Positions 797 to 37,903 of a stretch of DNA of 64,000 bases are shown one piece after another; the stretch's first letter is position 1, and every line of letters starts with the position of its first letter. The DNA is from Octopus sinensis (lineage: Eukaryota): positions 50,902,001 through 50,966,000 of the forward strand of contig NC_042998.1 of the NCBI RefSeq assembly GCF_006345805.1. The letters are read 5' to 3'. Under the pieces are notes generated by a model. That model saw only the letters and a list, made by a program, of their open reading frames with translations. It did not search any database and had not been told where the DNA came from. A program made the position numbers and the translations under genes.

Positions 797-1140
797 AAAA
801 CAAAGACATGACACCAAAACAAACAAATGTTTATAATGAACTTCATTCGCTTGCAGCTGTTTCTACCATAAGATGTGGTGGACTCTTAGTTGAGTACCAG
901 GATAACATCCTATATCTGCATCAGAGCCTTGAATATGAAGTACACTTTATTTGGGAATGTTACATTTTTAAAACATACAGACATTATACCCAAATAAAGT
1001 GTACTTCATGTTCAAGGCTCTGATGCAGATATAGGATGTCATACTGGTACTCAACTAAGAGTCCACCATATCTTATGGCAGAAACAGCTATAAAAAAATG
1101 TAGTACATTACAAACATTTGGTTTTTCAAGTCTTTGTTTC
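797..1140. mobile_element. Palindromic insertion next to (TA)n with a decayed hammerhead motif (Penelope pLTR-like)
   Basis: Inverted arms 855-955 / 989-1089, plus outer arms ~797-840 / 1103-1140. Arms contain GCT-CTGATGC...GAAACAGCT; the two-arm consensus is GAAACAGCTGTA, i.e. palindromic helix III and a GUA site. Confidence 0.6.
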
Positions 1141-1201
<61 letters not shown>

Positions 1202-1204
<3 letters not shown>

Positions 1205-2821
1205 TTGCAGCCAAAATGTTCAGAACGGCATTGTTTTCGTCAGAAAAGTAGGTATAAGCTTTTATCAAAGTTGTTTTATATTCTATAATTTTCACAGACA
1301 ATAAATACGATATTATTTGTTATTGTCTGAGATTTTGGTGTAATTTGAGAGGATAAAACAAAAGTTATGGATGATTTAGTGATTTACTGCAAAACCCATG
1401 GCGGCCAAAATGATCAGAACGGTTGCTTTTACTCCATGTTTTAGTATATTTAACTGGCAAACTCTAATGTTTTGAATTTGTTTACATGACGGTTCGTTTA
1501 CTAAACATTAGTAAGAATATCTGCAGTGTACTTTGTTAATATAATGCCACTTACTCCGTTACCAATTCGTCAGCAGATTATTAAGCTTCGAAAGAAGGAT
1601 AATTTAAGTATTGGGTCTATTGCAAAGATTGTTAACAAGTCAAAAAGTGTTGTTCACGGTATTCTTAAGGTCTACAATGATTGTGGTTCGTGTGAAGCTA
1701 GAAAGTCTACAGGTAGGCCAAGAAAAACGACCAAGAGAGAAGAACGTGCTATGGTAAAGTTGGTTAAAAAGGACAGATTTAAAACTGCTGCTGCTGTTTC
1801 TCGGGAAATGAGCATTGTACTGAAGAAAACTTTATCTCGAAAAACTGTGTCTTGTCGTTTAGTTGAACATGACCTACAAGCAAGAGCACCTGCAGCGAAG
1901 CCACTGATCAGCTCCAAGAATAAAAAGTGTCGTCTTACCTTTGCAACTGAACATGTGTTGTGGTCTCAAGAAAAATGGCAAACGTTGCATTTCAGTGATG
2001 AATCTAAGTTTATGTTATTTGGCTCAGATGGGAAAAGGTACGTTCGTCGAAAAGTAGGTGAAAAATTGTCACCTAAATGCCTTAAGGCTAGTGTTAAATT
2101 CGGTGGAAGAAGTGTCATGGTTTGGCGGATGATATCTGGAGATGGTGTGGGCCCTTTGGTGCAATTAAATGGAAAGGTAAATGCAGGAGTTTATAAACAA
2201 CTTGTAAAAGATCATGCCTTGCCTGTGCTGAGAAATTCAACCAAGCGACCACCCATAATCATGCAGGACAATGCCCCATGTCACAAGGCTAAGGTGGTCA
2301 TGAACTTCCTCAAGGCTGAAAAGGTTATTGTTATGGATTGGCCAGCTCAAAGCCCAGATCTCAATCCTATTGAAAATGTGTGGAATATTCTAGGAGAACA
2401 TTCAAAAGCCAGAAATCCTAAAACAACCGAGCAATTATGGGATGCCCTTCAGGAAGAATGGAATAAGATCACCCAGCAAGAAATTGAAAATTTAATTTCC
2501 TCATGCAGTCGAAGATGTCAAAGTGTGATTGAAGCTAAACGGCTTCACACTAAATATTAAATAATTCCAGTATTCTCTGTCATTTTTTATTATTTTGTTA
2601 TTTTTTCAACCGTTCTGATCATTTTGGCCGCCATGGGTTTTGCAGTAAATCACTAAATCATCCATAACTTTTGTATTATCCTCTTAAATTACACCAAAAT
2701 CTCAGACAATAACAATTAATATTGCCTGTGAAAATTATAGAATATAAAACAACTTTGATAAAAACTTATACCTACTTTTCTGACGAAAACAATGCCGTTC
2801 TGAACATTTTGGCTGCAACTG
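1202..2821 (+). mobile_element. Full-length Tc1-family DNA transposon (IR/DR type)
   Basis: Terminal inverted repeats of ~215-224 bp (1202-1425 and 2607-2821, starting CAGTTGCAGCCAAAATG). TA dinucleotide on both sides. Each TIR has an inner direct repeat (GCCAAAATGTTCAGAACGG / GCCAAAATGATCAGAACGG). Encloses an uninterrupted transposase ORF. Confidence 0.96.
1544..2560 (+). CDS. Tc1 transposase, DD34E, apparently intact (338 aa from ATG 1544)
   Basis: N-terminal HTH region, GRPRK linker, FSDESKF, QDNAPCH and SPDLNPIENVW motifs. 34 residues counted between the second D and E. No stops or frameshifts. Confidence 0.95.
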   Translation: MPLTPLPIRQQIIKLRKKDNLSIGSIAKIVNKSKSVVHGILKVYNDCGSCEARKSTGRPRKTTKREERAMVKLVKKDRFKTAAAVSREMSIVLKKTLSRKTVSCRLVEHDLQARAPAAKPLISSKNKKCRLTFATEHVLWSQEKWQTLHFSDESKFMLFGSDGKRYVRRKVGEKLSPKCLKASVKFGGRSVMVWRMISGDGVGPLVQLNGKVNAGVYKQLVKDHALPVLRNSTKRPPIIMQDNAPCHKAKVVMNFLKAEKVIVMDWPAQSPDLNPIENVWNILGEHSKARNPKTTEQLWDALQEEWNKITQQEIENLISSCSRRCQSVIEAKRLHTKY

Positions 2822-2916
2822 TATATATATGTATGTATACATGCATGTATGTATGTATGTATGTATGTATGTATGTATGTATGTATGTATGTATGTATGT
2901 ATGTATGCATGTATGA

Positions 2917-3613
2917 TATCTTAGTATGGAGTGATCATCTGGTCAGAATGAAGGATTCAAGGATGCCCAAACAACTCTTTTACGGAGAGTTAGCTAAAGT
3001 AGAACGACCTCCACATAAACCAAAAAAGAGGTATAAGGACTTGCTGAAGGCATCCTTAAGAGATACTTGCATCTCTCCTGACACATGGGAAGGCATAGCT
3101 ATTGATCGTAGCAGGTGGAGAAGGATTGTGCATGAGGGGACAGCCACTTTTGAGAAATCTCGTGTTGCACATGAGAAAGTAAGGAGGGATGTTAGGAAGG
3201 GCATCGCTGTTACACTTCCAGAAGGGAAGGGTCTTCCTTTGATGCTGACATACAATGTCTGTGCAAGACCCTGCCTAAGTAAAGCTGGACTCAAGAGTCA
3301 TCTTTGTAGTCATAAAACGAGACAGCTGAGTGACAACCTGGCCACTGGTGGTGGTGTAATACACCATACTAATCATATCTGTCGGGCATGTGGAAGAGAG
3401 TGTAATTCGGCAGGAGGACTTAAATGACATGCAAAGCTACAAGAAGCCCAGTTACAACTACAGCCAGCTGTTACCAGTAAAGGTTTTAGGTGCCAATTTT
3501 GTACAAGATATTGTAGATCTTTAGCTGGGTTAAAAAGTCACATTCGATCACAGCACCAGTAACAGTTAAGCTTCGTGCAATGGCCATACTCGATAACGAG
3601 GGGGCAGCCATAA
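2917..3613 (+). mobile_element. RTE-clade LINE 3' fragment (post-RT region plus C2H2-like zinc fingers), decayed
   Basis: LVWSDHLVRMKDSRMPKQLFYGEL...PKKRYKDLLKASL...WEGIAIDRSRWR is the typical RTE C-terminus. It is followed by CxxC...GLKSH motifs with stops. 5'-truncated. Confidence 0.85.
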
Positions 3614-3749
3614 TATCTTAGTAACAGGAAATTACAGGGTAACTCAAGGCCCGAGAGTTTTGAGCATTAGTACTTACAAACTATGATAAGTGCCAATGCA
3701 TGAAACTCTCAGCCTTTGAGTCACTTTGTAACTTGTCCTTTATATATAT

Positions 3750-4749
3750 ATAAAGATGGAAGTGGAAATAGCACAGAAATAAATCTAAGACATTTCAATT
3801 TAAGAAGGAATTTAATAAAATAATTTTTAAAATTATATAAAGAAAATATTACCGGTTTTACTGATGAAACTTGTTTTATCAATTATCAGTAAAAATTTAT
3901 AAAAATTTGAAGCAAAACCAGTTTATCTTCTGTCTGGGAGTCAAAAACATGTCTGGAGAGTTTTCGTTGATGTCTTCTTTAAATATAGTTTGGTATAGAA
4001 TTCAAAGTGTAAGAGAGTATGAGAGGGAGTTGTTTATTGTCTAAAAGAAATCTTTGTGGGTTACTGCCAAGGGAGTGGTTTAAAAGCATTTATTGAATGG
4101 ATTTTGTGTCCACCTGTGTGTGTGTGTGTGTGTGTGTATTGTGTTGAATGTCCTTTCAGTATATTTGGAATGTGACCAGATGTGCGTTGATGGGTGTGTA
4201 TGTTGTGATGAATGTCATGTTGAAGAAAGAATTAGGATTTTCCTTTGGGTCAGATGTATTTTTTTTGAGTGTCTCCACCTGTGTCTATGTGTGTGGTCAC
4301 CAGCTGTGTGTATGTGTGTGTGTATGTGTGTGAGTGTGTTTTCTTGCAATGTTTTCTTTTGTGTGTATGTGTGTGTTTGTGTGTGGGTGTATATTTGTTT
4401 GTGTTTGTGTGTGTGTCTTTGTGATGTTTTATGTGGTGTATGTGTGTATGTATTTGTGTGTGAGTGTTTGTGTGTGTATTTTTGCAATGTTTTCTTTTGC
4501 ATGTATCTGTGTTTATGTGTGTGTGTGCAGAGGTGTGAGTGCGTTTGTGTGTCTATGCAGAGGTGCATGTGTGTTTTTGTGAGTTGTTTTTTGTTATGTT
4601 TTCTTTTGTATGTGTGTGTATGTACATGTATGTTTGTGTGTGTGTGTTTGTGCATGTGTGTGCTTGTGAGTTATTTTTTGTGATGTTTTCTTTTGTGTGT
4701 ATGTGTGTGGGTGTTTGTGTGTGTGTATGTTTGTGTGTGTGTGTGTGCA

Positions 4750-4792
<43 letters not shown>

Positions 4793-6320
4793 TCATCATC
4801 ATCATCGTTTAGCGTCCGTTTTCCATGCTAGCATGGGTTGGACGGTTCTACTGGGGTCTGTGAAGCCAGAAGGCTTCATCAGGCCCAGTATATATATATA
4901 TATATTGGAAAGAAGATTTAAGAATTGATGGGAAGTATTTTTCAAATATGTATAAAATTGTTTTTAAGTGTCTGTTCTTATTTCATGGTTGGTAGCGGTT
5001 GGGTTTATATTTAATTGCGGTTTATTCTTGTTAATAAATTGCCTTTCTTTATTTAGTCTTTGTTGTTGGTTGAAAGAATCAGAGCACTTGTAGAGGGGAA
5101 AATTTTGAAATTTGGTAAATCCATTCCTGCACAGGTTGCAAACTGGCTGCTTAAAGGAATTTTCCTTGTGCATTTGTCTTGGATCTGTTGTTGATGGGTC
5201 GTCATTCTGTTGCGTAACGATCGGACCGTCTGACCTCTGTAATTATGTTGGCAACCATTGCATGTAATTATGTAGATCATGTTTTTTATGTTGCAGGTGA
5301 GATTGGACTTGACTTTGAAGGTTTAGCTATCTTTGAATTTAAAGTTTGGTCCCTCAGTTAGGTAACAGACATTCATCCCAACATACACACCCATCAACAC
5401 ACATCTGGTCACATTTGAAACATATTGAAAGGACATTCAACACAATAGACACACACTCACACACAGGTGGACATAAAATCCATTCAATAAATGCTTTCAA
5501 GTCACTCCCTTGGCAGGAACCCACAAAGATGTCTTTTAGGCAATGACTGTAACACTGGCCTATGCCAGTGTAGCATAACTTGGCCCATTTAAGAGTACCT
5601 TTCAATCATTGGGCAATAAACTGTGTTTTAGAAGACCTGTTGAGTCAAGTGAAATCATGGTTGTGGCCAATGCCAGTACTGCCTGAGTGGCTCCTGTGCC
5701 AGTGTCAAGTAAAAAGCACCAATTGAGCGTGGTCATTGGCAGTGTCACCTGACTGGCTCCTGTGCCAGTGACACATAAAAAGCACCATTCAAGTGCAGTA
5801 GATGCCAGTATCACCTGACTGGCCTTTGTGCCAGTGGCTTGTAAAAAGCACCCACTACATTCTTGGAGTGGTTGGTGTTAGGAAGGGCATCCAGCAGCAG
5901 AAACTTTTCCAGATCAGATTGGAGCATGGTACAGCCTTCTGGCTTGCCAGTCTTCAGTCAAACTGCCCAACCCAAGCCAGCATGGAAAGTAGACGTTAAA
6001 TGATGATGATGATGATGATGATGATGAATAGACAACTACACCCCCTCTCTTACTCTCTAGCACTTTGAACTCTACACCAAACTATATTTAAAGAAGACTT
6101 AATAAAAATTCTCTAGACAAGTTTGTGACCCACAGACAGAAGATAAACTGTTTTTACTTCAAATTTTTATAAATTTTTACACGTATTTGGTAAGATGAAA
6201 TTCATCATTCAATCTGGTAATATTTTCTTTATATAATCTAAAAAATCATTTTATTAAATTTCTTCTTAAATTGAAATGTATTAGATTTACTTCTGTGCTA
6301 TTTCCACCTCCATCTTTTAT
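3750..6320 (-). mobile_element. Truncated Penelope-like retroelement: GIY-YIG remnant, 3' pLTR and 5' inverted pLTR copy
   Basis: 3750-4217 is the reverse complement (diverged) of 5368-5545 plus ~6032-6320; the second copy is split by a SINE. A GIY-YIG remnant lies between them, reading toward the left arm. Left edge at a short TA tract. Confidence 0.78.
4965..5350 (-). pseudogene. Penelope (Neptune-like) GIY-YIG endonuclease remnant
   Basis: FKVKSNLTCNIKNMIYIITCNGCQHNYRGQTVRSLRNRMTTHQQQI...(frameshift)...RLNKERQFINKNKPQLN matches the PLE pattern C-x4-IY-x3-CxxC-x3-YxGQT-x3-LxxR-x3-H...RxxxE...LN. Contains a stop and a frameshift. Confidence 0.85.
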
Positions 6321-6650
6321 GTATAAAAATTTGATTTGTACAGATCTCTAATTTTTTTCAATGGAGTGGTTGGCGTTAGGAAGGGCATCCAGCTGTAGAA
6401 ACATTGCCAGATTAGACTGGAGCCTGGTGCAGCCTTCTGGCTTCCCAGAACCCCGGTCGAACCGTCCAACCCATGCTAGCATGGAGAACGGACGTTAAAC
6501 GATGATGATGATGATGATGATGATATATATGTTAGAAGAAATGAGGTACTCAGAAATCTGGATGGTTTTATATTTACACATATTTATTAATATTTCTGAG
6601 TACCTCATTTCTTCTAATATATAATACCTGTACATCATCTCCAAACCTTC

Positions 6651-6699
<49 letters not shown>

Positions 6700-6739
6700 T
6701 ATATATATATATATAATATATATATATATACATATATGT

Positions 6740-6985
6740 GGAGGCGCATGGCTTAGTGGTTAGGGTGACAGCATCATGATCGTAAGATTGTGGTTTTGAT
6801 TCTTGGACCAGGCGACACGTTTCTTGAGCAAAACACTTCATTTCGCGTTGCTCCAGTCCACGCAGCTGGTAAAAATGATTAACCCTGTGATGGACTGGCG
6901 TCCTGTCCAGCTGGGGAACACATACGCCATTGAAACCAGGAAACTGGACCCATGAGCCTGGCTAGGCTTTAAAAGGGTGCATTTA
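6740..6985 (+). mobile_element. tRNA-derived SINE family D (representative copy)
   Basis: GGCGCATGGCTTAGTGGTTAG...GGTTTTGATTC head. Related copies at ~63055-63340(+), 42687-42940(+), 32309-32640(+), 29610-29925(-) and 43290-43635(-). Confidence 0.72.
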
Positions 6986-8042
6986 TTTATTATACATATA
7001 TATGTGTGTGTGTGTATGTGTGTGTGTATAAGCCGGTGCTCCGGCATGGCCACAGTCAAATGACTGAAACAACTAAAAGTATAAAAGAATAACAGACAGT
7101 CAGATAGATAGATAGATATTACATAGTTTGCTGACTCAATTAACTTAATATGATCAAGTATTTCATCAAGCCATACTCTTAAATGCTTCAACTCTTGGCA
7201 AAAATATGTACTAATGCTCTTCATTTCCCCCATCTATTATTTAAGAAGTTATATAATACAACGGTGTAACAACATAAATCACTATATACGTATGAAATCA
7301 CTTGATAATAGAGGAAACTTGCACCATGTCATGCTACAGCGCACTTTTTTCCCACTTATCCCTTGAGCCTTTCTGTGGAAATTAGCTAACCTTCACCTGT
7401 TTGATTGTGCAGTCATGCATGTAATTTGCAAATGGTCTGACTTGTATAATAGAAAGCAAAAAGATAACTAATACACTTGCTGCTTTCTATTACAATAAGT
7501 TTGGTGATGGGCAAAAAAATATGAGCTGATGGAAATATAGCAAAATTTGCTAACCATCTATTTAGGTAAAAGTTTTCGATGCAAATAATGGCAACATTGG
7601 CTTGAGGTAAATGAAAAATAACTAAAATAAATAAAGAATACTAATATCATTTTAAATACGGTTCTAATTGAGAACTTTTAAAAATAATTTGACGTTGAAG
7701 TTAATAATTAGCTGTTATTTTAATGACTTTTTTTAACCTTTTAAACTTTCTCTCTGAGTTGAAACCCCCCAAAGAATATTCCACTGGAAAATTAATGAGC
7801 CAATAAGAAAGTTTCTTTGTGGTCGTTTGACCTTCTTGAAATAACGGTTGAATTTGTCCAGAACATAGGCACAGACATAGCTGTGTTGTTAAAAAGCTTG
7901 CTTCCAAGTCATGTGTTGTTGGGTCTCATGCCAATGGATAGCACCATAGGCTGACTAAAGATTTGGAGTGGATTCAGTAGACAAAAGCTGAAAGAAGCCA
8001 ATTGTAAATATATATACATATATGTGTGTGTGTGTGTGTGTA

Positions 8043-8078
<36 letters not shown>

Positions 8079-8109
8079 ATGGGTTTCTTACTTTAATATT
8101 TACTCTAAT

Positions 8110-9264: not shown

Positions 9265-9485
9265 ACTTTAGCATTCAGGTTACTCTGTAAATGTAATGTT
9301 TGTTGTTTATTCCCATTGTTTCAAATTAATCCTGCATTATCTCACAGCTCTGAGATTTTTATGATGTGATTGTTTATTTTAGAATGACATTGTAGGATAA
9401 GTATGAAAGGACAGATCTGGCTTGTTTGAACATAAAACAGGGAGGATATTAAGACCTGATGTGGCCAGTTTAAATGCTAAAGGGC
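9265..9485. mobile_element. MITE of the same family as 15627-15853
   Basis: CTTTAGCATT ... AATGCTAAAGGG ends. The internal sequence is similar to the reverse complement of 15627-15853. Confidence 0.58.
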
Positions 9486-21520: not shown

Positions 21521-21911
21521 TGCAGCTACTAATAATATCTAGCTCAGAGATTTATTATTGCTTGTTTACACTTTTTCGATATCAGTGACTTTTGGTCACT
21601 GGAAAAAGGATATATATTTGCAAAGGGAGGCCTACTTTTCGTCAACAACTGTGATTGTCACACGCAGATGATGGGTCAATACCCAGAAACTTAAGGCCAT
21701 GTGTATCATAGGTTGAAAACGAGAAGGATGGCTTCCCTTTGCAAATACTGATAGGGTACAGAAAGTGTGTCAATAGCCAGCTAGAAGAGGTGTCCTCCTG
21801 GGGCTACAAGCTACAGTAGAATCCACTCTTAGGGGTTAGCCACATTTAAGTGGCAAATATACTTCCCGATGTCATGCAGCTACTGTTTATACCTCGCTCA
21901 GAGATTTATTA
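21521..21911 (+). mobile_element. TA-embedded element with short terminal direct repeats and a decayed hammerhead
   Basis: TGCAGCTACT...GCTCAGAGATTTATTA occurs at 21521 and ~21875. At 21659-21703: CACACG-CAGATGA-TGGGT-CAAT-ACCCA-GAAA-CTTAAG-GC-CATGTG, with two core substitutions. An inverted repeat ~21614-21748 surrounds the motif. Confidence 0.62.
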
Positions 21912-22223
21912 CATATATATATATATATGTGTATATTTCAACAATTGAGGGTAAAATTAATTAATTATTAATCAATTTCACCAAGTATTCAGTATGCAAA
22001 GGGACCATTTAAGGCGAATTCAAATTATTACATTATATAAAAGGGCTTAGTAAAATAAATTACTTTGCCGCATACTGAACTCATTAGAAATAGTAGCTAA
22101 AAAAAAACTTTTTTAAAACTATTTCTAATACTTAAAGAAAACCTCTCTCATATAGTGTTTGCTCAATTCAACTCACGAAAGTATGGGGGTAAAGACATTA
22201 AAAAATCAAATGCAAAGGTTATT

Positions 22224-22275
22224 TGAGAACGTACGTTTCAAGATTAGTCAACTCGACATTTCTATCATCAGCTCA
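22224..22275 (-). ncRNA. Type I hammerhead ribozyme motif (inverted copy, sense to the TTLL intron)
   Basis: Exact reverse complement of 22914-22965. Confidence 0.78.
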
Positions 22276-22913
22276 GAACTCCTTGGTTTGGATTTGAAAA
22301 CACTGAAAGTGGGAGCATACCCTTTCGGCTTCTTATCGCTTCTGAAGATCTGCTCGAAACTAACAGTGCCAGCAAACTCAAATATGCAAGCGAAGAATTT
22401 CTGCTCTCCCCTTTCCACCAGCGTGGGCTAAAATCAGTAAACACTATGCTTTTTCGGTAAAATCCGAGGCATTAAATAGAGAGAGATGAATTATAATTTC
22501 AACAATTGAGGGTAAAATTAATTAATTATTAATCAATTTCACCAAGTATTCAGTATGCAAAGGGACCATTTAAGGCAAATTCAAATTATTACATTATATA
22601 AAAGGGCTTAGTAAAATAAATTACTTTGCCGCATACTGAACTCATTAGAAATAGTAGCTAAAAAAACTTTTTTAAAACTATTTCTAATACTTAAAGAAAA
22701 CCTCTCTCATATAGTGTTTGCTCGGATTTTACCGAAAAAGCATAGTGTTTACTGATTTTAGCCCACGCTGGTGGAAAGGGGAGAGCAGAAATTCTTCGCT
22801 TGCATATTTGAGTTTGCTGGCACTGTTAGTTTCGAGCAGATCTTCAGAAGCGATAAGAAGCCGAAAGGGTATGCTCCCACTTTCAGTGTTTTCAAATCCA
22901 AACCAAGGAGTTC

Positions 22914-22965
22914 TGAGCTGATGATAGAAATGTCGAGTTGACTAATCTTGAAACGTACGTTCTCA
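22914..22965 (+). ncRNA. Type I hammerhead ribozyme motif
   Basis: TGAG-CTGATGA-T-AGA(aatGTCgagttGACtaa)TCT-T-GAAA-CGTACG-TT-CTCA. Helix I TGAG/CTCA, intact core, palindromic helix III ACGTACGT, GUU site (cut predicted after 22961). Confidence 0.78.
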
Positions 22966-23279
22966 AATAACCTTTGCATTTGATTTTTTAATGTCTTTAC
23001 CCCCATACTTTCGTGAGTTGAATTGAGCAAACACTATATGAGAGAGGTTTTCTTTAAGTATTAGAAATAGTTTTAAAAAAGTTTTTTTAGCTACTATTTC
23101 TAATGAGTTCAGTATGCGGCAAAGTAATTTATTTTACTAAGCCCTTTTATATAATATATATGTGTATATATATATATATATATATACAAGCGAATATAAA
23201 CAAGAGGGGTAGTAATATTATTTACTACCAGGTGCCCAGCACAAAAGACGAATTAGTCATAGGAGCCCTTAATTATATA

Positions 23280-23325
<46 letters not shown>

Positions 23326-24003: not shown

Positions 24004-24881
24004 GCTTGAGTGAAAGAGAGGGGAGGGAGAGAAAGGGAAGGGGAAGGGGCGAGGAGGAGATCGGGAGAGGGGAGGAGAGGGAGAGGAGAGGGGGAAGGGG
24101 AGAGGTAAAGGAGAGAAGGGTCAGAGAGGGAGGAGAGGGAGAGGGAGTGGGGGTGCAACTGAGATACAAAAGGCTTCTGTTGATTTTTCTTGATTTTCCA
24201 GAATCTTTCAGCGTTGTATATTCTTTTGGCTTATTGTTCCCTGCTTTCATTTTGCTCTTTGTCATAGACTTCTGATATAGGCACAGTCGTGGCTGTGTGG
24301 TTAAGAAACTCACTTTGCAACCACATAATTTTGGGTTCAGTCTCACGGTGTGGTATCTTGAGCAAGTGTCTTCTACTATAGCCCCAGGCAGACCAATATC
24401 TTGTGAGTGAATTTGGTGTGGAAGCTCATCATGTGTGTGTGTTAGTCCTACAACCACTGCTTGACAACCAGTGCTGGTTTGTTTACATCTCTGTAATTTA
24501 GTAGTTTGGCAAATAAGATCAATAGAATTTTTATTCTTTCATTCTTTTATTTGTTTCAGTCATTTTGATTGCAGCCATACCGGAGCACCACCTTTAGTCA
24601 AACAAATCTACCCCAGGACTTATTCTTTGTAAGCCTAGTACTTATTCTATCATTCTCTTTTGTCAAACTGCTAAGTTACGGGAACATAAACACACCAACA
24701 TCGGTTGTCAAGTGATGGTGGGGGGACAAACACAGACACATACATACACATATATATATATAGAGTTGAGTATAGAAATTCGGGGTGAGTACTTGATAAT
24801 TATAAGCACCTGTGTATACCGTTTGGTGGTGTAGGTGGTGGAGTAAATTGATCAAAATAAAAACATGATGCGAAGGATTCA

Positions 24882-24959
24882 GCGGTACATATGTTTCGGG
24901 CCTTTATTAGACAGATTTATAACAATGCATAATGTATGTCTGTGGCCTTCTTCAGCCGC
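24882..24959 (-). ncRNA. Type I hammerhead ribozyme motif (inverted copy, sense to the TTLL intron)
   Basis: Exact reverse complement of 25211-25288. Confidence 0.8.
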
Positions 24960-25210
24960 GCACAACAGCCTCCACAAGGACATGTGTTACATCAAAAATT
25001 CTTGGTTGGGGATGCAAATCCTCTCATTTGCGTACGACATAATGCGGCAGCAGCATAGAATTGAAGCGTCCATCTCTTTCTTGAGAGAAGAAAGAGATGG
25101 ACGCTTCAATTCTATGCTGCTGCCGCATTATGTCGTACGCGAATGAGAGGATTTGCATCCCCAACCAAGAATTTTTGATGTAACACATGTCCTTGTGGAG
25201 GCTGTTGTGC

Positions 25211-25288
25211 GCGGCTGAAGAAGGCCACAGACATACATTATGCATTGTTATAAATCTGTCTAATAAAGGCCCGAAACATATGTACCGC
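25211..25288 (+). ncRNA. Type I hammerhead ribozyme motif with extended helix II
   Basis: GCGG-CTGAAGA-A-GGCC(ACAGA...TCTGT...)GGCC-C-GAAA-CATATG-TA-CCGC. Helix I GCGG/CCGC, palindromic helix III ACATATGT, GUA site (cut predicted after 25284). Confidence 0.8.
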
Positions 25289-28015
25289 TGAATCCTTCGC
25301 ATCATGTTTTTATTTTGATCAATTTACATATATATATATACATATATATATATAACAGGCCTCTTTCAGTTTCTGTCTATCAAATCCACTCACAAGGCTT
25401 TGGTGAGCCTGAGGCTATGGTAGAAGACACTTGCATAATGTGCCACGCAGTAGGACTGAACCCGGAACCATATGGTTGGTAAGCAAGCTACTTACCACAC
25501 AGCCACTCCTGTGCCTAAATACTATTCTTTAATAAGTAAGTATTGGGATTGATTTGTTGAGCAAAAACCCTTCAAGGCAGTGCCCCAGCATGGCCACAGT
25601 CCAATGACTAAAATAAGTGAAAGGATATCTTTTCTGTTGATTTGGCTCAGCAAAATTTATAAGGATACCTGAAAGTGTTGCCCAAGGTGTCACACAGTGG
25701 GACTGAACTCAGAACCATATGGCTGAGAAGCAAGCTTTTTACCACACAGCCACACTTGATCAATCAATACCATCAAGTATGGTTGTGAATTGACCCCAAA
25801 TAAAGGGTTGTCATGTTCATCTGCTTTGTACTCAAATCACTGACAGTAAAAGAAAAACCTTAAAAAATCTTTTAAAAGGCTTCATGTGAAAAGTAAACTA
25901 AAGAAAAATAATAATGATGTGAGAAAGACAAGTTAATCTCCTATTGTGGAATTAACTTCTCCTTTCTTTATACCTCATGTTTTTGAAGAGACATTATGGC
26001 TGGCTGCAGTCAAGCCCTGTGCAGATTGCAATGTAGTTTAAATATTAAGTTGAAATCAATGAAGAGAATACCACCAAACCTTAATTCAAAATAAGGTTTG
26101 GTATCAGGGAGAGCAGCCAAGTGTAAAATATTAATAGTACTTCAACAACTGTTATCCAACACATGAAAAAAGTGGACCTAAAAAAGATGGTGGTGGTGGT
26201 GGTGGTGGTGGTGATGGTGGTATCGGTATTGGTACTGGTGGTAGTGGTAGTAATAACAATGGTAACAACAACAACGATGGTGGTGTTGGAGGTGATGGTA
26301 TTGGTGGTGGTGGGGGTATTGTTAGTGGTGGTTGTATTGGTGGTGGTGATGGTGGTAGTGGTGGGAATGACAATGATGATGGTGGTGGTGGTGGTGATGG
26401 TCGTGGCTGCAGTTGGGTGGAAGGGTTGTGGGGATTGTGGTGGTGGTTGCAGTGGTGGCAGTAATGGTGTAAAAGGATTTCCTGCATTTAAATTTTTGTT
26501 TTTGGGTGATGCCCCCAAACAATGCAGCACTTTCAAAAGCAATCAGCGGCTCCAAAGTGCTGATAACATTGACATCACAGAGCTCAGATTGTTAAACGGT
26601 GATTCTTATCAGACAATATACCTATAGAAATTGATTCTATTGTGATTCTTCCTATTTCTCCCATGCCTCTTGCATTATCTCCTCCATCTTGTGTGACCTT
26701 AAATCTTTCAGTTAGCGGAAGCCAACAAAGTTTCCTACAGAATATTGAAGAATATTATTTGCACATCATTTAAAGATTTCGGTGGGGTGGGGGGTATTTT
26801 TTGTCTTTTCTTTTGTTTCCTGATATCATGCCAACTCTGTACATACACTTCCTGAAGTAAAAGTAAATAAATTTCTTATCATTTCTCGTCTCACTAAAAA
26901 TGAGCTGGGCAGATGGCATACAGATTGTTAGCGCTATTTCATAAACAATTTAAGAATTCTTCCATCTGCTCTGGTCATTTAGTCCTTTCCTATTCTACTC
27001 TATTTTTCTTAATGAGTTTTAATTATTTATTATCATATACTTTATCAATATTTTCCAGCTGTTAACATTTCCATTTCTTGGATTTTTGGAATCACCAGTA
27101 GACATTCAGCAAAGAGATTTAGTCTGTTACAATTTAAACATTTGAAATTTTCCTAAAATATATTAGCGCAACATGTTGATATGGTGAATTATTATCTTTC
27201 TTAAATTGCATCTAACAATCATCGGCATCGTCATCGTTGTCGGCGTCGTCATCATCATCATCATAGTTGTCATCATCGGAGTCACCATGTTTGTCATTGA
27301 CATCATCGATGTTAATAATTATCGTCGTCGTCGTCGTCATCATCATCATTATCATCATCATCGTTGTCATCATCATCATTGTCACCATCATCGTTGTCAT
27401 CATCATCATTGTCACCATCAGAGTCACCATGTTTGTCATTGACATCATCGATGTTAATAATTATCATCACCAGCATCAGCATCATCATCAGTATCATCAT
27501 CATCAGCATCCCCATCATCATCGTTTTTAATGTCCACTTTTCTATGCTTGCACATGGGTCGGATAAAGTTTACCGAGGCAGGTGTTCTGCAGCCAGATGA
27601 CCAACCTTCCTGATGCTTAAACTCCCACCCGTTTCTAAATAAAGTAGTGTTTCTCCATGGCCAGACATGTTTTCATAGAATATTAGAAATGAACATCACT
27701 GCTTACATGACAGTGACAGTAATTTTACAACTATTACAAGATATCAAGACAAGGAAACACATACACACACATTTGCTTACATGGCCACATACACACATAG
27801 ATACAAGACTTTTCTGAGGTTTAAAATGTGACAGTGTTCTCGCTATCTACATTCCAACGATGGAGCTTTGTATCTTTGTTAGAAAATAGCTCCTGTTTCT
27901 AATTACCGACACAAGGCCAGCAATTTTGAAATGAATGGATTAGTCAATATCACAGAACCTAATCCTTGAGCAGTGCTTTATCCCTTCAGGGTCAATAAAA
28001 TTAAGCACTGTTCAA

Positions 28016-29425: not shown

Positions 29426-30816
29426 GGTATTGACTAATCCCTTCATTTCAAAATTGTTGGCCTTGTGTCGGTAATTACAAACAATTAGATCAGTCCCACT
29501 GCATGGCACCTTGTGCAAGTGTCTTCAACTACAGCCCCAGGTTGAACAATGCTTGTGAGTGAATTGGGTAGAGTGAAACTGTGAGAACCCATTGTATAAA
29601 AGAAAAAAGGGGTAAAGACCCCCTTCAGTCATGAATGACCATGGGATTGACCTAGAAAGTTCCCCTCTGAGGTACAAGGCCAGGCAAGGTTGTTTATGGA
29701 AGGCCAGCATTCACCCATGCATACCAACCTCCCCTCTTCATATCACCAATGTTATCCAAGGGAGAGGCAAAGACCAATACAACTTGGCACCAGTGACATC
29801 ACAACTCATCTTTACAGCTGAGTGTTTTGTTTGCAAACACAACATACAGCCCAATCTGGGAATCGAACTCACTACCTCATGATTGTGAACCCAACACTCT
29901 AACCACTGAGCCATATGCCTTCACACCATCGTGTGTGTGTGTGTGGTGTGTGTGTGTGTGTGTTTGTACTTGTGCTTGTTTCCCCATTACCACTCAATAA
30001 TTGGTGTTGCTTTGTTTACATCCCTATTAGGGGGTTGTTTACATAAGCAAAAGGATAAAAACTGGGAGCAACCAAATTTGAAATACAAAATGACTTTTGC
30101 ACCACCTTGTATAATAAACAGCCTCAGCACCATTCTACCATTCTAACCAACCCTTCTCTACTCTTTTCTTGTCTTATCATCACTCACACTATCTCTCATT
30201 ACCACTCAGGGACCACATCAACTTCTTTGCTACTTCTTTCCTCCTCAAAATGTATATCGTCCGGAATTCCCTTTCACCCCCACCTCCCGCCCTCCATGAT
30301 ATTTTCTGCTAACTTTGACTTATAGATCTTCAAGCTGAACGTCTTCTATATTGATCTCCGCTGCTTTTGGAAAACCTCCAAAGGTGATGAGCACTGCCAC
30401 TTCTTTTGCTCATCTGTTTCTGTCATTGGGTTGCAGCCATGCAATTTCATGAACTGCATGGGGTAACTTATTAAATCAGTCTCTTTTGCTGAACCACTAA
30501 GTTACAGGGACATAAACAAACCAATACTGGTCAGCAAGCAGCGGAGGAGGCAACAAACACAATAACGAAGACACACATACATACATATATATAATACAAA
30601 CATATGCACAGCCACACATACAATAGTCTTCAGCACAGTTTCTAACATATTCACTCTCAATGCATTCATCCATAAATTTTCTTTTTACATGCATATTGTG
30701 TGACTATGTGTACGTTTATGTGTCAGTGTATATGTATATGTGTGTTTGTACACCTGGCTTGTGTGAATTTTAAAGCTAATTTGCATGGGTTTAATGTGTG
30801 CACATGTGTATATTCT

Positions 30817-30864
<48 letters not shown>

Positions 30865-31081
30865 TTTCCCTATGTGTATGTACATCTATGTACCAAGCAA
30901 AATTATGTATATTTCTAAATGTTTCTATATATGCATGTAACTAAGTGTGCTTCTTTGAGTATGTGTATGTATGTATGTATGTATGTGTATAAGTATTGCT
31001 AAGGTGTGTCACCAATCAAAGAATAATGGGCAATTTCTTTCTTCAAAAGCAGTAAACAATAAAATTCCAGTTCCAACTTAC

Positions 31082-31212
31082 TCTGCTGGAAGGCACCAAG
31101 TTTTAGGAAATATATCATAGTCTTTGGGGAACATCTTACGCATGCGAGTCATATTGCGTGCCAGAAGATCTTTGCGGCAAATTTCGTTCATTCCTGGGAA
31201 ATGATTGATTTT
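31082..31212 (-). CDS. TTLL6: Tubulin polyglutamylase TTLL6/TTLL13-like, internal coding exon
   Basis: Manual minus-strand translation gives KINHFPGMNEICRKDLLARNMTRMRKMFPKDYDIFPKTWCLPA(D), the conserved TTL-domain start of TTLL6/13. It is flanked by a cacag acceptor and a gtaag donor. Length 131 bp (43 codons + 2 nt), so the phase matches the next exon. Not in the ORF track. TTLL6 vs TTLL13 cannot be resolved. Confidence 0.92.
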
Positions 31213-31645
31213 CTGTGAATCAAATGAACAGAAAATAGTTTTTTTTAATACAAAAATAGGATTTTGTTGTCACAAATTTCAGCAAACATGCACATATGTG
31301 GGTGCACAAAAACACACTCAAACGTATGCAAACACACCTGTACATGCACAAACACATACATGCATATGCAGACACACTTGCATATGCATACACACACAAA
31401 CACACACACACATACACACATATATATATATACATAAGTATGTGCATACATATATAGACAGTTAATAGGCAAACTCATAAGAGTGTCAGGTAGGATGACT
31501 TGTGGTATTCATTCAGGCTTTCTGCATTTAAAGTTCAAATCCTGCTATGGTCCACTTTCTCCTTCAAACATTTTTGGGTCAATAAATAAAGAATCAGGTT
31601 ATAGCAGTGGGTTGGCAAAATTATTAAGGGAATGAATGAAATTCC

Positions 31646-32046
31646 TTTACTCTTTTACTTGTTTCAGTCATTTGACTGTGACCATGCTGGAGCACCACCT
31701 TTAGTCAAGCAAATCGAGCCCAGGCTTTATTCATTGTAAGCCTAGTACTTATTCTATTGATCTCTTTTGCCAAACCACTAAGTTACGGGGACGTAAACAC
31801 ACCAGCATAGGTTGTCAAGCAATGTTGGGGGGACAAACACAGACAAACAAACACACACACACATATATATGTATACATATGTACAACAGGCTTCTTTCAG
31901 TTTCCGTCTACCAAACCCACTCACAAGGCTTTGGTCGACCCAAGGCTATAGTAGAAGGCACTTGCCCAAGGTGCCACACAGTGGGACTGAACCCGGAACC
32001 ATGTGGTTCATAAGCAAGCTACTTACCACACAGCCACTCCTATGCC
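31646..32046 (-). mobile_element. SINE family A copy
   Basis: High similarity to 285-662. Confidence 0.85.
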
Positions 32047-32842
32047 TACGCCGCTCCTGATCATATTTAATCCAAACTTCCCCTTTGTTTTCTGAATGCA
32101 TATATTGCTTAGGTGCTAAAAAAATGCACCCTTGCTAACAAGCAGGACAAGTAAAATAATTCTTTGACACAACAGCTAAATGATGATATGTGTTAGATGG
32201 TATCAACAAGGTTCCTCCCAGTTGGAGACACATCTACCAGAATTGTAATATACATACATGCATATACAGGTACATACATACATACATACATAAAGGTAAG
32301 GTAAGGTGAAGGCACATGGCTCAGTGGTTAGAGTGTCATGAGGTTGTGGAGACTGATTCCTGGACCAGGCAGTGTTGTGTTCTTGAGCAAGACATTTTAT
32401 TTCAGGTTGCTCCAGTTCACTCAGCAGTAGAAATGAGTTGCGACATCATTGGTGTTTTGCTGTATTGGCCTTTGACTTTCCCTTGGATAACATCGGTGAC
32501 AGGAAGAGAGGAGACTGGTATGCCTGGGCGACTGCTGGTCTTCCAGAAACAACCTTGTCCAGACATGTGCATAGGAGGGGAACTTTCTAGGTGTAATCCC
32601 ATGATCATTCATGACCAAAGGGGTCTATACCTCTTTTTTCTTTTACATACATACCTACATGCATACATACATATATTTATCTTATGAAGTCAACAGTCTA
32701 CCCTGAGTTTATTCACTCACCCTGGTGCACTGAGTTGTATACAAGATGTTTGCACTATGAAAAATGTATTATCGATATATTTTACTACTGTTACATTACT
32801 ATATATATATATATCAACTACACACATATATATATGTGTATA

Positions 32843-32932
<90 letters not shown>

Positions 32933-33058
32933 CGGGAAGGTTTACAAAAATAAACAAAAGACGAAGGCAGGTTTACGAAAATAAACAAGAGAGGAAGGCA
33001 GATGGAGTACAAACAAACAATGTATTAGTATGGCGCTCAGGAATAGAAATAAAACAAG

Positions 33059-33096
33059 TCTTTTATGTTTCGAGCCTACGCTCTTCGACAGAAAGA
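33059..33096 (-). ncRNA. Minimal hammerhead-like motif, variant or decayed
   Basis: Minus strand: TCTTT-CTGTCGA-A-GAGC-GTAG-GCTC-GAAA-CA-TA-AAAGA. Helix I is 5 bp and helix II 4 bp. The core has U at position 6, and helix III ACAT is probably decayed from ACGT. Lies in a ~220-bp element (32931-33150) abutting (TA)n. Confidence 0.58.
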
Positions 33097-33153
33097 TACA
33101 CAGAAAAGAAACAAGGAGAGAAAAAAATTGCGTGTAGGGGCTAACGATCCAAC

Positions 33154-33518
33154 ATACCTATCATGCTACCAATAGTTTCCCGTACATGCATACGTCCATC
33201 AGTCACCAATTGCACTATACTCCCAAAACTTTAGTTTAAATAGAGGACCTGTTTAGAACCGGCACAAAGATAAAACAGGTCTAATGGAGGATACCACCTT
33301 GATGAGTAAAATAAAATAAAATATAAATATTTTACTTTATTTTATCTTATTTTATTTTATTTTAACATTCAAGGTGGTTTCTTCCATTAGACATGTTTAA
33401 TTTTTGTGCTGGTACTAAATTCGTTCCTCTATTTAAAGTAAAGTTTTAGGAGTATAGCGCAACTGGCACCTGATGAATGTAAGCATGTATAGGAAACTGT
33501 TAGTAGCATGATAGGTAT
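33154..33518. mobile_element. Old diverged palindrome with decayed hammerhead motifs
   Basis: Inverted arms of ~170 bp around an AT-rich centre. Right arm 33470-33505 reads CTGATGA-A-TGTAAGCATGTATAG-GAAA-CTGTTAG-TA. Left arm (reverse complement) reads CTGATGG-A-CGTATGCATGTACG-G-GAAA-CTATTGG-TA. Confidence 0.65.
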
Positions 33519-34928
33519 ATGTAGTTGAAACGTTTAGTAATACTGAACTCTCATTGAATGGAGTACTCTTCATATTGACTTTTACACAGTTAATTTCTTA
33601 TATATATATTTATATCAATTTAATATGGAACAAAAAGGGCTACTAATAGTTTCATGCTTTTATGAGACTTAAACTAGACATATTTATAAAAAAATGCCAT
33701 ATATCTCCAAGAAATTTTTCAGTGTTTATTTATGCATTATTTTAAAAACAAGGATGCTGGACAGTGAGAAAATAAGAAAAAATTTGAAAATTTTTTCTTA
33801 TTTCAAAACATTGAACAATGTTAAGAAGGTTGATGCAAGAAATGGAATGAAAGGCAAAAAACAAATATTCATGTCCTCAATTAATTACATTTGGTATGAA
33901 ATAAAATAATAGAAAATATGTCAAAGTCTGTGAGACAGCAGCTCAATCCAGAGCATGTGGTATTCTTCAATTTAAGAAAAGATACTTATTCATCTGTTTA
34001 CACCTGCTAAAAATTCCAGATCTGAAATTAAGCAGTATGTTGGAATTGTTAGATCTAAGAATATGAAGGACATTATAAATCATAAAAATCACCAAGAGCC
34101 CACTTTCAGTTGTAACTACCAACACCATGAAGCCTGCCCATTTGACCATGTGTGTATGATAAACTCTGTATCCCATTGAACTATAGTAAGAGGTTTCTAA
34201 CCTCAAATTGTTTTTATTAAAGAGAAAAAAAGAACAATGTTTTTGGGAAGCAGCGATTGGCAGGTGTCGTCTGCTTCCCTCATCAATATTGTTATTTTAC
34301 TCATCATTCATTTCCTTTGTTGTTGTTGTCCAGCCCGTATTTGCTTCCATCTATTTAAAGCCTTTATGGCTAATTTGATGAAATAAAGAAGTTTGCTTCC
34401 CAATCACATGGTTTCGGTTTCAGTCCTACTGTGTGGCACCTTGGGTAAGTGTCTTGAACTACAGCTTCAGGTCATCCAAAGCCTTGTGAGTGGATTTGGT
34501 AGACAGAAACTGAAGGAAGCTCATCATGTGTGTGGGGGGGATGGGGTGTGTGGGGGAGGGTCGCGTGTGTGGGGACGGTGTGGGGGGAGTGCGTGCGTGC
34601 TTGTGTGTGTGTGTGTGTGCATGTATGTGTCTTTGTAGCTGAGGATGTGCCCCCATCACTGCTTACCAACTTGTGTTGTTGTGTTTATGTCTCCATAACA
34701 TAGCAGTTCAGCAAAAGAGACTGATAGAATAAGTACCAGGCTTTAAAAATAATAAGTACTGGGATTAATTCATTCTACTAAAAATACTTTGAGGCAGTAC
34801 CCCAGCATGGCCATAGTCAAATGACTAAAACAAGTAAAAGATAAAAATTAATATATATATATGTATATGTGAGACTCTGTGTGTGTGTGTGTGTTATCAT
34901 CAGAAAAAGGTAATTAAAATTCATTAAA

Positions 34929-35997
34929 ATGACAGATCTATTGGACTTTCAAAGAGGTCAAACTATTGGTGCTTGTATAGCAAGCACTAGTGTAACAAAA
35001 ACAACCGAAATGTTTGGTGCATCAAGTACTGTCTCAAAAGTAATGGCAGCCTTTGAGAAAGAGGGAAAAACCTCCTTGTCAAAACAAAACTCTGGAAGAA
35101 AACTTTCAGATAGGGACCGTCAGACTCTTATGCAAATTGTTAGAAAAGTTCACAAAGTACAGCTCCCAAAATGACTGCAGAGCTTAATGACTACCTCGAG
35201 AACCCAGTTTCCACAAAACTGTTCACCAGGAACTGCACAAAGCTGGATTTCACAGGAGGGCTGCAATCAGAAAAGCACTTCTTTCAAAACCAAATGTTGC
35301 AAAGCATTTAGAGTGGAGTAAAAACCTACAGAATTGGTCCCTAGAGTAGTGGAAGAATGTTATTTTCTCAGACAAGTCATCCTTTACCTTATTTCCGACC
35401 ACCAGCCGAGTATACATATGAAGACAGCCAAAAGAAGTATTTGACCCAGACTGCCTTTTCCCAACTGTTACACATGGAGGAGGATCTGTGATGATCTGGG
35501 GGGCACTATATCTTGGAAATCTGCCAGTCCAATGGTTTCTCTTTATGGCAGAATTAATAGTCAAGACTATTTAAGCATTTTATCTGATCAAATTCATCCT
35601 ATGGTTGTGGAACTGTTTCTGGAGGGAAATGCAATCTTTCAGGATGATAATGCACCAATTCACACAGCTAAAGTTGTTACTGAATGGCACGAGGAACATT
35701 CTTGTGAAGTTGAACATCTTATCTGGCCAACACAGTCCCCAGATCTCAATATTATTGAACATTTATGGTGCATTTTAGAAAAACAAGTAAGGAGTCGATA
35801 TCCTCCACCATCATCACTACAAGAACTGGAGGCTGTTTTAGCTGAAGAATAGACAAAAATTCCTTTGGAAACAATTCAAACTATCTATGATCATACCTCG
35901 TAGAATTCAAGCTGTAAGTTCTGCCAAAGGCAGTCTTACCCCATGTTAAGATAAATTTTAAATTTTAAGACGTTTCCATTATTTTGTCCAACTCCTG
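34929..35997 (+). pseudogene. Decayed Tc1-like transposon (catalytic spacing DD36E)
   Basis: Fragments MTDLLDFQRGQTIG...GRKLSDRDRQ, FSDKSSF, HGGGSVMIWG and FQDDNAPIH...WPTQSPDLNIIEHLW, with frameshifts and stops. Right TIR-like end TTTCCATTATTTTGTCCAACTCCTG-TA. Confidence 0.85.
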
Positions 35998-36597
35998 TAT
36001 ATGTGTGTATGAATGTATGTGCATATGCATGTATGTGTGTGTGTGTGTATATGTATGTGTGTATGTGTGTGTCTGAGCCTGTGCATTTGTGTTTGTGTGT
36101 ACTCTGGTCTACACATCATGTGATGTTTGTTAAAGTGCATCATCATCATAATCATCATCCATGTAAGGTTGTTCAGTTTAAATCTTCTTGAAAAAAAACA
36201 TTTCCCGGCTAAGGTAACACATTATCTTGTCTGAGAAACAGGTGAGGATCAACAAGAAGAGCACCCAGCCATAGTAAAGCTGCCTCAAATAATTACATCT
36301 GACCCATGAAAGCATGGAAAAGTGGACATTAAATGATGATGATAATGATGATGAGAATCATGATGATGATGTGTGTACCTATATCCTTTGCTGCCTCTTT
36401 TTCATCATCGTTGTCATTATAAATAATTACCATCATCAAATTTTTCATATCCATTTTATCATACGATCAAGACATCTTTCAAAGCAGTGTAGAATATTCT
36501 TCATTGATCTAACTCTTATCCTTTCACAAAGCTCAGCTTCTTTTAAAGTTAAACCAGACTACTTAGCTGTTTACCTTATCCCTGTCCGTTTTTTTTT

Positions 36598-36599
36598 AC

Positions 36600-36633
<34 letters not shown>

Positions 36634-37025
36634 TCTGCTACTATTACTACCACTACTACAACTTTTAACAGCACCACCATCACAAAGACCACCACCAACA
36701 CCAACAACATCAACAAGACCACTACCACCACCACCACCACCACCACTATTACTTTTACCACCACCAGCACCACAACCGCGATTACCAACACCATCACAAA
36801 AACCATCGCTACCACCAGTACTACTACTACTACTTCTGCTACTATTACTACCACTACTACAACTTTTACCAGCAGCACCATCACAAAGACCACCACCAAC
36901 ACCAACACCATCAAGAAGACCAGTACCACCACCATCGCCACCACCACTACTACTACTACTGACCCTACTACTACCAGTACTACTGGTGCTGCTGCTGTGG
37001 CTGTTGCTGCCACTGCTGTCAGCCA
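36598..37025. repeat. Compound (ACT/ACC)n microsatellite with an internal ~200-bp duplication
   Basis: CTGCTACTATTACTACCACTACTACAACTTTTA...CACAAAGACC occurs at ~36635 and ~36836. Confidence 0.8.
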
Positions 37026-37617
37026 TTATCTCAAACAGAACTTTCAAGCGAATTTACATTTCTCAACATTCACACGAATTACATATTTTTTTTTTCCTTT
37101 TTATTTGGAAACAGCAAACCCAATCTGCTACACAGCCGGCATCGTCCATTCACACAAGTGTTCAGCATCTATCTTACATACATTCCATCTCACACTTCCA
37201 AAGAAACCTATTTAATATTTTACTCTCTGACCTCTCTGAAGAGATCTCCTGCTCTCCATAAGCTGTCTTTTGCACTTCTGCCACATGCATCAAACACCCC
37301 AGCCTTTCTACATCTTGAAGGAGTAGAATACCAATAAGGCTAGCCATTCTGCAGTGTTCTTGGAAATGTCTAACTTTTAAATGTTATGCTACTGATGTAT
37401 ATGCAATTGCATAGGAATGTGTATGTGCATAATTACACACAGGCATGGCTATGTGGTAAGAGATTTGCTTCCCAACCACATGGTTCGGGTTCAATCCCAC
37501 TGCATGGTACTTTCAGCAAGTGCTTTCTACTATAGTCTTAGGCCAACCAGAGCCTTGTGATAGGATTTGGTAGATGGAAACTGAAAGAAACCTGTTGTGT
37601 GTGTGTGTATGTATATG

Positions 37618-37648
<31 letters not shown>

Positions 37649-37654
37649 TATATA

Positions 37655-37903
37655 TATAATCAAAATAAGCAACAAGGATATCCAGAAGCAATGCAGTACG
37701 ATTGTTTCATGCGACTCCATTTAATTAAACAATGCAAACATTACATCAATCTTAAATGTAGAGCAATCTTCAGCTGCACAAAAAAATAGAATTTAATTAA
37801 ATTTTAGATTGATGTAATGTTCGCATTGTTCAATTAAATGGAGTCGCATGAAACGATCGTACTGCATCACCTCTGGATATCCTTGTTGCTTATTTTGATT
37901 ATA
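37655..37903. mobile_element. Palindromic insertion in (TA)n inside a SINE
   Basis: Inverted arms ~37655-37752 / ~37806-37903, with TA tracts at the left end and ~85 bp beyond the right arm. Confidence 0.8.
37692..37778 (-). ncRNA. Type I hammerhead ribozyme motif with extended helix II
   Basis: Minus strand: TGCAG-CTGAAGA-T-TGC(long insert)GCA-T-GAAA-CAATCG-TA-CTGCA. Helix I is 5 bp. The opposite arm preserves the palindromic helix III ACGATCGT. GUA site. Confidence 0.75.

Follow-up and report, generated by a model that had tools for sequence, protein, structure and literature searches.

Why eight insertions at or next to (TA)n microsatellites should all carry the same hammerhead ribozyme architecture is the question raised by a 64,000-nt window of the 2.72-Gb genome of Octopus sinensis (NC_042998.1, positions 50,902,001–50,966,000). 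A sequence-only reading had recognized the motif in these insertions, labelled here A to H in window order. They are best explained as copies of eight dispersed repeat families with type I hammerheads, of which E, B, F and H represent 3′ ends from Penelope-like elements (PLEs), this being a reading to which a probability of about 0.88 can be assigned. A and G are likely PLE 3′ ends as well, while C and D are protein-free tandem units that PLE enzymes likely move. Hammerhead cleavage is predicted, as is the folding of D and E dimers, the motif being read from the sequence.

The genome was searched with each insertion, giving 26 to 2,949 first-look candidates per family, and 20–30 loci were fetched per family. 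Each of the eight insertions belongs to a dispersed, genome-wide repeat family. No family majority matches the insertion of another family, TA runs aside, in agreement with the lack of shared primary sequence noted before. Eight insertions in 37 kb correspond to one per 4.6 kb, close to the earlier estimate of about one per 5 kb; the window beyond 38 kb contains neither a hit to the strict type I descriptor nor any of the families A–H.

The majority sequences of all eight families contain a complete type I hammerhead, with U6 in F and U3-A8 in B, and perfect cores (CUGANGA, GAAA and UH in order) are found in the majorities of A, C, D, E, G and H. Helix II is flanked on both sides by an extra base in six of the eight families. 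The architecture attributed to all eight insertions holds at the family level, while several of the window copies are decayed. The CUGANGA core, thought to run throughout, is replaced by UUGAUAA (U3-A8) in B and by CUGUNGA in F, and the latter departure is a trait of the family rather than decay. Among the self-complementary helix III words, ACCGGU of B is upheld, CTTAAG given for C is a decayed CTCGAG and not the family form, and helix III of G is corrected to ACTA-T-TAGT. The boundaries originally given to several insertions were too narrow because a tail lengthens one arm: A covers ~695–1140, B extends to 6361, E starts at 24763, G reaches ~33600 and H reaches ~37988.

In the window itself, the strict descriptor finds four intact motifs, D and E having a pair each, and a relaxed scan adds one more, that of H at 37691–37779 on the minus strand. 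When the 14 window arms are compared with the core of their own family, seven match, three carry one change, two carry two and one carries three, and the right arm of H lacks the 5′ core. Intact cores are found in both arms of D and of E, in the left arm of H (−) and in the right arm of G (+). Rfam returned 90 matches at E ≤ 1, none of them to a hammerhead model; most are sub-threshold microRNA models placed on hairpins and microsatellites.

The expected covariation of helices I, II and III is observed among related families. The covariation set consists of 11 H-related lineages, which are related families found in the locus flanks and make up one homologous lineage. In these, 95.5% of cells are paired, as opposed to only 28–48% in slid controls, and the covariation score exceeds that of all 500 shuffles. 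Double changes occur in 7 of 18 pairs and are spread over helices I, II and III and the inner hairpin. Single covarying relatives of C and of F add to this support, the relative of C showing compensatory changes in helix II and helix III. The flanks of the fetched loci (L001–L267) also contain several further hammerhead families unrelated to A–H, examples of their helix III words being CACGTG, CGCGCG and CCTAGG, besides another CATATG type, and the genome holds many more hammerhead families than eight.

Insertion E (24763–25327), with 240-bp perfect inverted arms and an 80-nt left-arm tail, is a 3′ end from a young PLE of the Hydra clade. Its two intact hammerheads lie at 24882–24959 (−) and 25211–25288 (+), with predicted cuts after 24886 and 25284, respectively. 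In the fetched locus L141, an uninterrupted open reading frame (ORF) of 842 amino acids (L141:2088–4616) is located between two E pseudo-long terminal repeats (pLTRs) 4,769 nt apart, and its start codon is 192 nt downstream of the predicted hammerhead cut. The protein, read by motif and not by a tree, contains IRWA, DKT, CxCx5C and a C-terminal endonuclease (EN) and has no CCHH motif. By these motifs it is a Hydra-clade protein as defined in PMC8557442, the RWK-type motif of that definition appearing as RWA. A Naiad assignment is ruled out because the EN of E is C-terminal. Homologues of the protein, an Argonauta protein being among those named, contain PF26215 and in some cases PF01541. Open frames of 750–842 amino acids with 94–100% identity are present in several E copies. 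Elsewhere in the genome there are many Hydra-type ORFs at 55–60% identity to E, with open frames of up to 1,124 codons, which implies that there are several young autonomous families.

Insertion H (37655–37988) consists of two 3′ ends from a Hydra-type PLE placed head to head, with the short end on the left and the long tail on the right. The left-arm hammerhead (37691–37779, −) has an intact core and one helix III mismatch, and the right arm is without the 5′ half of the motif. Of 18 fetched regions that precede more distant Hydra-type ORFs, 11 contain a sense H-like hammerhead, four contain only an antisense one and three contain none by descriptor. A GIY-YIG domain upstream of H on the same strand is found in one locus only (L219, E 8e-05).

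Insertion B (3750–6361) is an inverted 3′ end that comes from a Neptune-like PLE; it is short on the left and long on the right, and later insertions are nested in it. Its left hammerhead (3845–3887, −) has the helix III ACCGGU and, in this copy, G12A and a damaged helix II, while that of the right arm (6182–6224, +) is heavily decayed, with three core changes. Upstream of the left pLTR and on the same strand, tblastn reveals a decayed GIY-YIG endonuclease remnant (5056–5364, −), matching a related EN with E 4e-42 and the EN of F with E 4e-05. Such a same-strand upstream GIY-YIG is present for B in three loci (L051, which is the window, L075 and L078). Insertion F (32931–33155, −) is a ~225-nt solo 3′ end of a very abundant Neptune-like PLE, and its minimal hammerhead (33059–33096, −) carries the family-fixed U6 (CUGUCGA) with one helix III change in this copy. 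An EN upstream on the same strand is found for F in three loci (L145, L156 and L158), and reverse transcriptase (RT), thumb and EN fragments lie upstream of F, the RT preceding the EN. A CX2-5CxxC linker and CCHH motifs are visible in the EN fragments of both B and F, which look Neptune-like as far as motifs in fragments can tell, Naiad ENs being similar (PMC8557442).

Linkage to PLE RT and GIY-YIG genes, one of the checks that had been suggested, is found directly for E and through flanking EN or RT genes for B, F and H, and not for A and G. Insertion A (695–1140) is an old head-to-head pair of PLE-type 3′ ends, with the long tail on the left arm and the short end on the right, and is ~80–86% identical to other copies of its family. 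Both of its hammerheads are decayed: the left (848–929, −) has A9C and U16.1C, and the right (1015–1096, +) has A9C and changes in helices I and III. The departures from the family majority shared by both arms (A9C and a nearby change) suggest one template or conversion between the arms. Insertion G (33154–33600) is likewise an old head-to-head pair of PLE-type 3′ ends, with the long tail on the right arm; its left hammerhead (33163–33206, −) is decayed by A9G, and the right one (33466–33509, +) has an intact core and a broken helix I.

The anatomy of the insertions is common to most of the families. In seven of them (A, B, C, D, E, G and H), 3′ ends fall preferentially at two sites, 40–100 nt apart, located at ~+50/+152 from the predicted cut in A, +105/+138 in B, +169/+211 in C, +197/+295 in D, +42/+115 in E, +38/+97 in G and +42/+138 in H, the long values for A, B, G and H being limited by the length of the reference. 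The same seven families have inverted, 5′-truncated partners. Among head-to-head pairs, 73 of 76 combine one short and one long arm (p ~1e-18 against 0.5): 9/9 in A, 8/8 in B, 7/8 in C, 16/16 in D, 9/9 in E, 12/14 in G and 12/12 in H. The count leaves out an extra B arm in L074, a duplicate G pair in L199 and the D locus L123, which is cut by the locus edge, and the D pairs were taken from a separate, unit-level analysis of D arms because an internal hairpin confused the general arm scan. A TA-type run follows 194 of 297 scored arm ends (26/27 in E and 33/41 in H) at backgrounds of 4.9% in the window and 8.6% at locus edges, in line with the enrichment at (TA)n that had been anticipated. A 4-nt alternating run, such as occurs at ~6–7% of positions, is present at the long sites of D and E, and the short sites are unremarkable, which gives a weak hint of microhomology between the start sites and TA.

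It was also considered that the motifs are chance matches inside foldback palindromes of DNA or those resembling miniature inverted-repeat transposable elements, since the insertions form long inverted repeats located at TA sites, the window has Tc1/mariner elements and only 4 of the 14 window arms pass the strict descriptor. The shuffle control that the sequence-only reading had proposed speaks otherwise: canonical matches are found in 0 of 200 shuffled windows, and the 945 kb of fetched loci, enriched by design, contain 155 canonical hits as opposed to none in three shuffles. The arms are also unequal and joined at variable points, the helices covary and the insertions are linked to RT and EN genes. 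Chance is thus extremely improbable, and for B, E, F and H it is refuted because PLE genes are linked to them.

As PLE insertions, the pairs could be formed as follows. A PLE protein would cut both strands within the (TA)n tract, and each free 3′ end would prime reverse transcription at an internal RNA site downstream of the ribozyme: the short site for one strand, the long, or tail, site for its partner. Joining of the two truncated cDNAs would then yield the palindromes. In this inferred model each strand is primed once, and the site differs between the two. Similarly, the Poseidon PLE of Anolis carolinensis cuts and extends both strands in vitro and has two internal RT starts (Frangieh et al. 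2024, PMC11167929). As in the present families, those starts match tail ends and the targets are AT-rich; however, Poseidon showed no strand difference in the start site, whereas the genomic pairs here are almost always short plus long. Ribozyme catalysis was dispensable for Poseidon insertion in vitro, uncleaved RNA being the main template. In the octopus families, cutting is likely not needed for insertion either, because copies read through the predicted cut site. The ribozymes are predicted to be of the dimer type, slow and possibly protein-assisted, and would process tandem transcripts; those of C and D might be processed into unit-length or circular RNA.

Insertion C (21521–21911, +) contains 1.1 units of a ~350-nt non-coding, retrozyme-like tandem unit and ends at the long 3′ site. 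Its family hammerhead (21659–21703, +) has a 6-bp helix I, a 4-bp helix II and the helix III ACUCGAGU, and the window copy carries U4A and U16.1G. Insertion D (21935–23158) is made of 1.4 minus-strand units, ending at the long site, head-to-head with 0.8 of a plus-strand unit, ending at the short site; its two intact hammerheads (22224–22275, −, and 22914–22965, +) have predicted cuts after 22228 and 22961. With 99–100% identity to other D copies, D is by this measure a very young element. The tandem periods are 349–351 nt in C and 559 nt in D, each unit has one type I hammerhead, and the longest stop-free stretch is 90–91 codons. C and D fit the description of non-LTR (non-long terminal repeat) retrozymes as non-coding hammerhead tandem units, and are known here from DNA. 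Among the sources listed for the sequence, none is recorded as RNA. The D unit, with its tandem junction, is covered by contigs from four sequencing runs presumed to be RNA; as contigs give no information on ends, strand or level, and the junction is present in DNA too, they were not used as evidence. The perfect inverted arms of E (24843–25327, 240 nt) and of D (22101–23088, 368 nt), if transcribed, would form long double-stranded RNA, a likely substrate of ADAR.

Alternatively, C and D could be PLE pLTR fragments locally expanded as satellites by unequal crossover, with an unseen autonomous parent supplying their ends. Local tandem amplification from a pLTR has been proposed by Li et al. 2026 (bioRxiv 10.64898/2026.07.22.740005), one head-to-head D array spans ~10 kb (G000:C1:157524094–157533934), and tandem DNA units are no proof of circular RNA. 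The right end of that array is the long site next to TA, and same-strand D neighbours are mostly spaced by multiples of ~557 nt. D is dispersed over many contigs, the 44-nt core of its ribozyme having 366 exact copies in the genome, and every copy has a TA flank of its own, a 5′ end that varies and a 3′ end at one or the other of two fixed sites. Among 43 D arms, 41 end at one of the two sites and 25 exceed one unit, running through the unit junction, while their 5′ ends are scattered. No PLE protein hit is present in 30 D loci or in four 10-kb D regions, and all scored inverted pairs of D are short plus long. Local expansion is for these reasons an unlikely origin, and mobilization of C and D by PLE enzymes is preferred. 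None of the 43 D arms starts exactly at the predicted cut, four starting 4–8 nt upstream in helix III and one at +6; in other families, the few arm starts within 4 nt of the cut (E −3, G +4, H +3) form no pile-up, and arms found by search are biased to span the motif. Both of the alternatives that had been put forward, ribozyme-bearing PLE termini and retrozyme-like elements, are present, and the single family once proposed is replaced by at least two PLE clades and non-autonomous units.

Several observations weigh against the assignment of all eight insertions to the PLE system. The thresholds for short and long arms were set after inspection of the data, and some of the short ends lie off the mode. 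The number of double-change pairs in the H lineages is equalled in 36 of 500 shuffles, and the covariation control is uncorrected for relatedness of the lineages. Pfam gives no RT or GIY-YIG hit for the 842-residue protein of E, only a sub-threshold Desmo_N. Within ±1.5 kb and among contiguous hits, no linked RT or EN ORF is seen for A (30 loci) or G (29 loci). Similarity points to no enzyme donor for C and D, these two having none to the other six majorities. F has a single 3′ end and forms no inverted pair in any of 30 loci. Finally, of nine Xenopus retrozyme dimers reported as tested by Li et al. (bioRxiv 10.64898/2026.07.22.740005), one cleaved.

The core of family F is unusual, as it lacks the canonical A6. 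The 27-nt F motif has 13,318 exact copies with U6 in the genome as opposed to 140 with A6, a proportion of ~1% that point mutation would give. At position 7, a hand count of the first 100 rows gives 51 T, 22 A, 15 C and 12 G, and U6 is common to all four types. Another 26 F-like rows, met by chance in locus flanks and 73–99% identical to the F majority, a few of them not independent, are 97% conserved at core positions and 87% outside. Their variation falls on the free positions 7 (C8, A8, T7, G3) and 17 (A18, T7); U6 is present in 23, and the two A6 rows represent a relative 73–75% identical to F. This core conservation suggests that the fold has been under selection since U6 appeared. A fixed 5′ end of F was considered and not accepted: 24 of 28 search-hit copies start 87–102 nt before the cut, but the lower bound of this distance is set by the query.

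The F motif could also be the relic of a dead ribozyme hitchhiking with a successful element, its conservation reflecting recent common ancestry. A6 is a conserved core base, and the natural A6C variant shows low activity in Mg2+ and a better one in Mn2+ (PMC3088659, PMC7151607). In addition, insertion in vitro still works with ribozyme mutants (PMC11167929), and Naiads thrive without canonical hammerheads (PMC8557442). The higher conservation of the core than of its surroundings, the gathering of changes at positions 7 and 17 and the presence of U6 in all four N7 types argue against a relic, which we nevertheless hold to be a serious contender at somewhat below even odds. The A6C hammerhead of phage Bcep176 is similarly a natural change at core position 6, but it is a single phage example with C (PMC3088659, PMC7151607), while the U of F is found in over 13,000 exact copies from several sublineages. 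No A6U hammerhead was found in print; Lünse 2017 and Arkhipova 2017, like the first supplement file of Cervera 2014, lay outside that search and may contain one.

A bolder and rather improbable proposal is that the PLE hammerhead is kept mainly as a fold and not as a cutter, helix III pairing two RNAs from which an RT dimer would prime at the short and the long site. The most abundant lineage, F, would then have swapped A6 for U with the rest of the motif conserved across sublineages, RNA pairing through a palindromic helix III would yield near-obligate short plus long insertions, and C and D would exploit the same route. Against this stand the inverted copies made by Naiads without canonical hammerheads (PMC8557442) and the lack of inverted pairs in the 30 F loci.

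PLE hammerheads and (TA)n targeting are already in print, and A–H are further members of the PLE pLTR hammerheads and non-LTR retrozymes. Whether the families had been catalogued was left undecided before. The kind is known: Craig et al. 2021 (PMC8557442) list (TA)n-targeted Hydra families, among them the octopus family Hydra-1_Obim, tabulate hammerheads whose helix II has an additional base on either side, and describe inverted copies with a tail often at one end only. Six 12-nt family motifs are not found in the supplement of that paper, a comparison that did not extend to Repbase and Dfam. The Hydra PLEs described there, such as Hydra-1_Obim and Penelope-1_HM, are similar in having a C-terminal GIY-YIG without CCHH, DKT, CxCx5C, (TA)n insertion, extra bases at helix II, a near-palindromic helix III, an inverted 5′-truncated partner and a one-end tail, and helix III of G is identical to that of Penelope-1_HM (File S2). 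In contrast to them, the helix II inserts of E and H are much longer (~50–60 nt), the H group has an inner hairpin, E has ~2.2 kb from the ORF end to the next ORF-start position and the tails measure 40–100 nt instead of 30–40.

Cervera and de la Peña 2014 (PMC4209133) describe minimal PLE hammerheads in many families per genome, with opposite-strand pairs and U3-A8. Their motifs are likewise type I with a short helix I, a palindromic helix III and an extra base after A9, occur in inverted pairs 100–700 bp apart and include the U3-A8 covariant seen in B. The consensus given there (CUGANGAH G..C GAAAN-palindrome-NUH) is matched by F in all respects except U6, which is absent from it and from the accompanying passages. 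The non-LTR retrozymes (PMC7229834; bioRxiv 10.64898/2026.07.22.740005) are also tandem units that encode no protein and contain a single type I hammerhead each. The ~350-nt unit of C resembles those of mussel and axolotl in these papers, and the U-U mismatch at the helix II base of D is as in HHR_Amex2. The D unit, at 559 nt, is longer than the 170–400 nt of PMC7229834 and within the 51–972 nt of the bioRxiv report. PLE mobilization of retrozymes was proposed in both from co-occurrence and pLTR homology, whereas in C and D the anatomy of insertion is itself visible, with two 3′ ends, inverted partners and TA targets. Penelope-like elements are among the repeats counted in a recent annotation of octopus, in which the word "ribozyme" is not used.

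Several other repeats are present in the window. The TA tract to the right of A is occupied by an element at 1201–2822 with terminal inverted repeats and a 351-codon frame (~1505–2557, +), which we take to be of Tc1/mariner type from its motifs, and a second, decayed mariner-like transposase fragment was recognized by eye at 34900–36000. Palindromes at 42124–42369 (108-nt arms) and 6530–6619 (a short hairpin), in which a hammerhead was not detected, are possibly truncated PLE ends. An array of 25.6 copies of a 381-bp unit (52117–61843, 98% match) starts at a TA tract and is followed by a 174-bp repeat; no hammerhead was found in it on either strand, and it could be another PLE-related or satellite array.

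The less ordinary features of this locus are the U6 lineage F, the pairing of short with long arms and the PLE insertion signature on C and D. They provide material for two open questions, the role of the PLE hammerhead and what mobilizes animal retrozymes. One genome holds a young, intact Hydra-clade ORF in E, the very young, protein-free D and a natural pair of homologous U6 and A6 ribozymes, and therefore each question has a ready comparison. The short plus long rule, seen in 73 of 76 pairs, constrains models of how inverted PLE insertions are formed.

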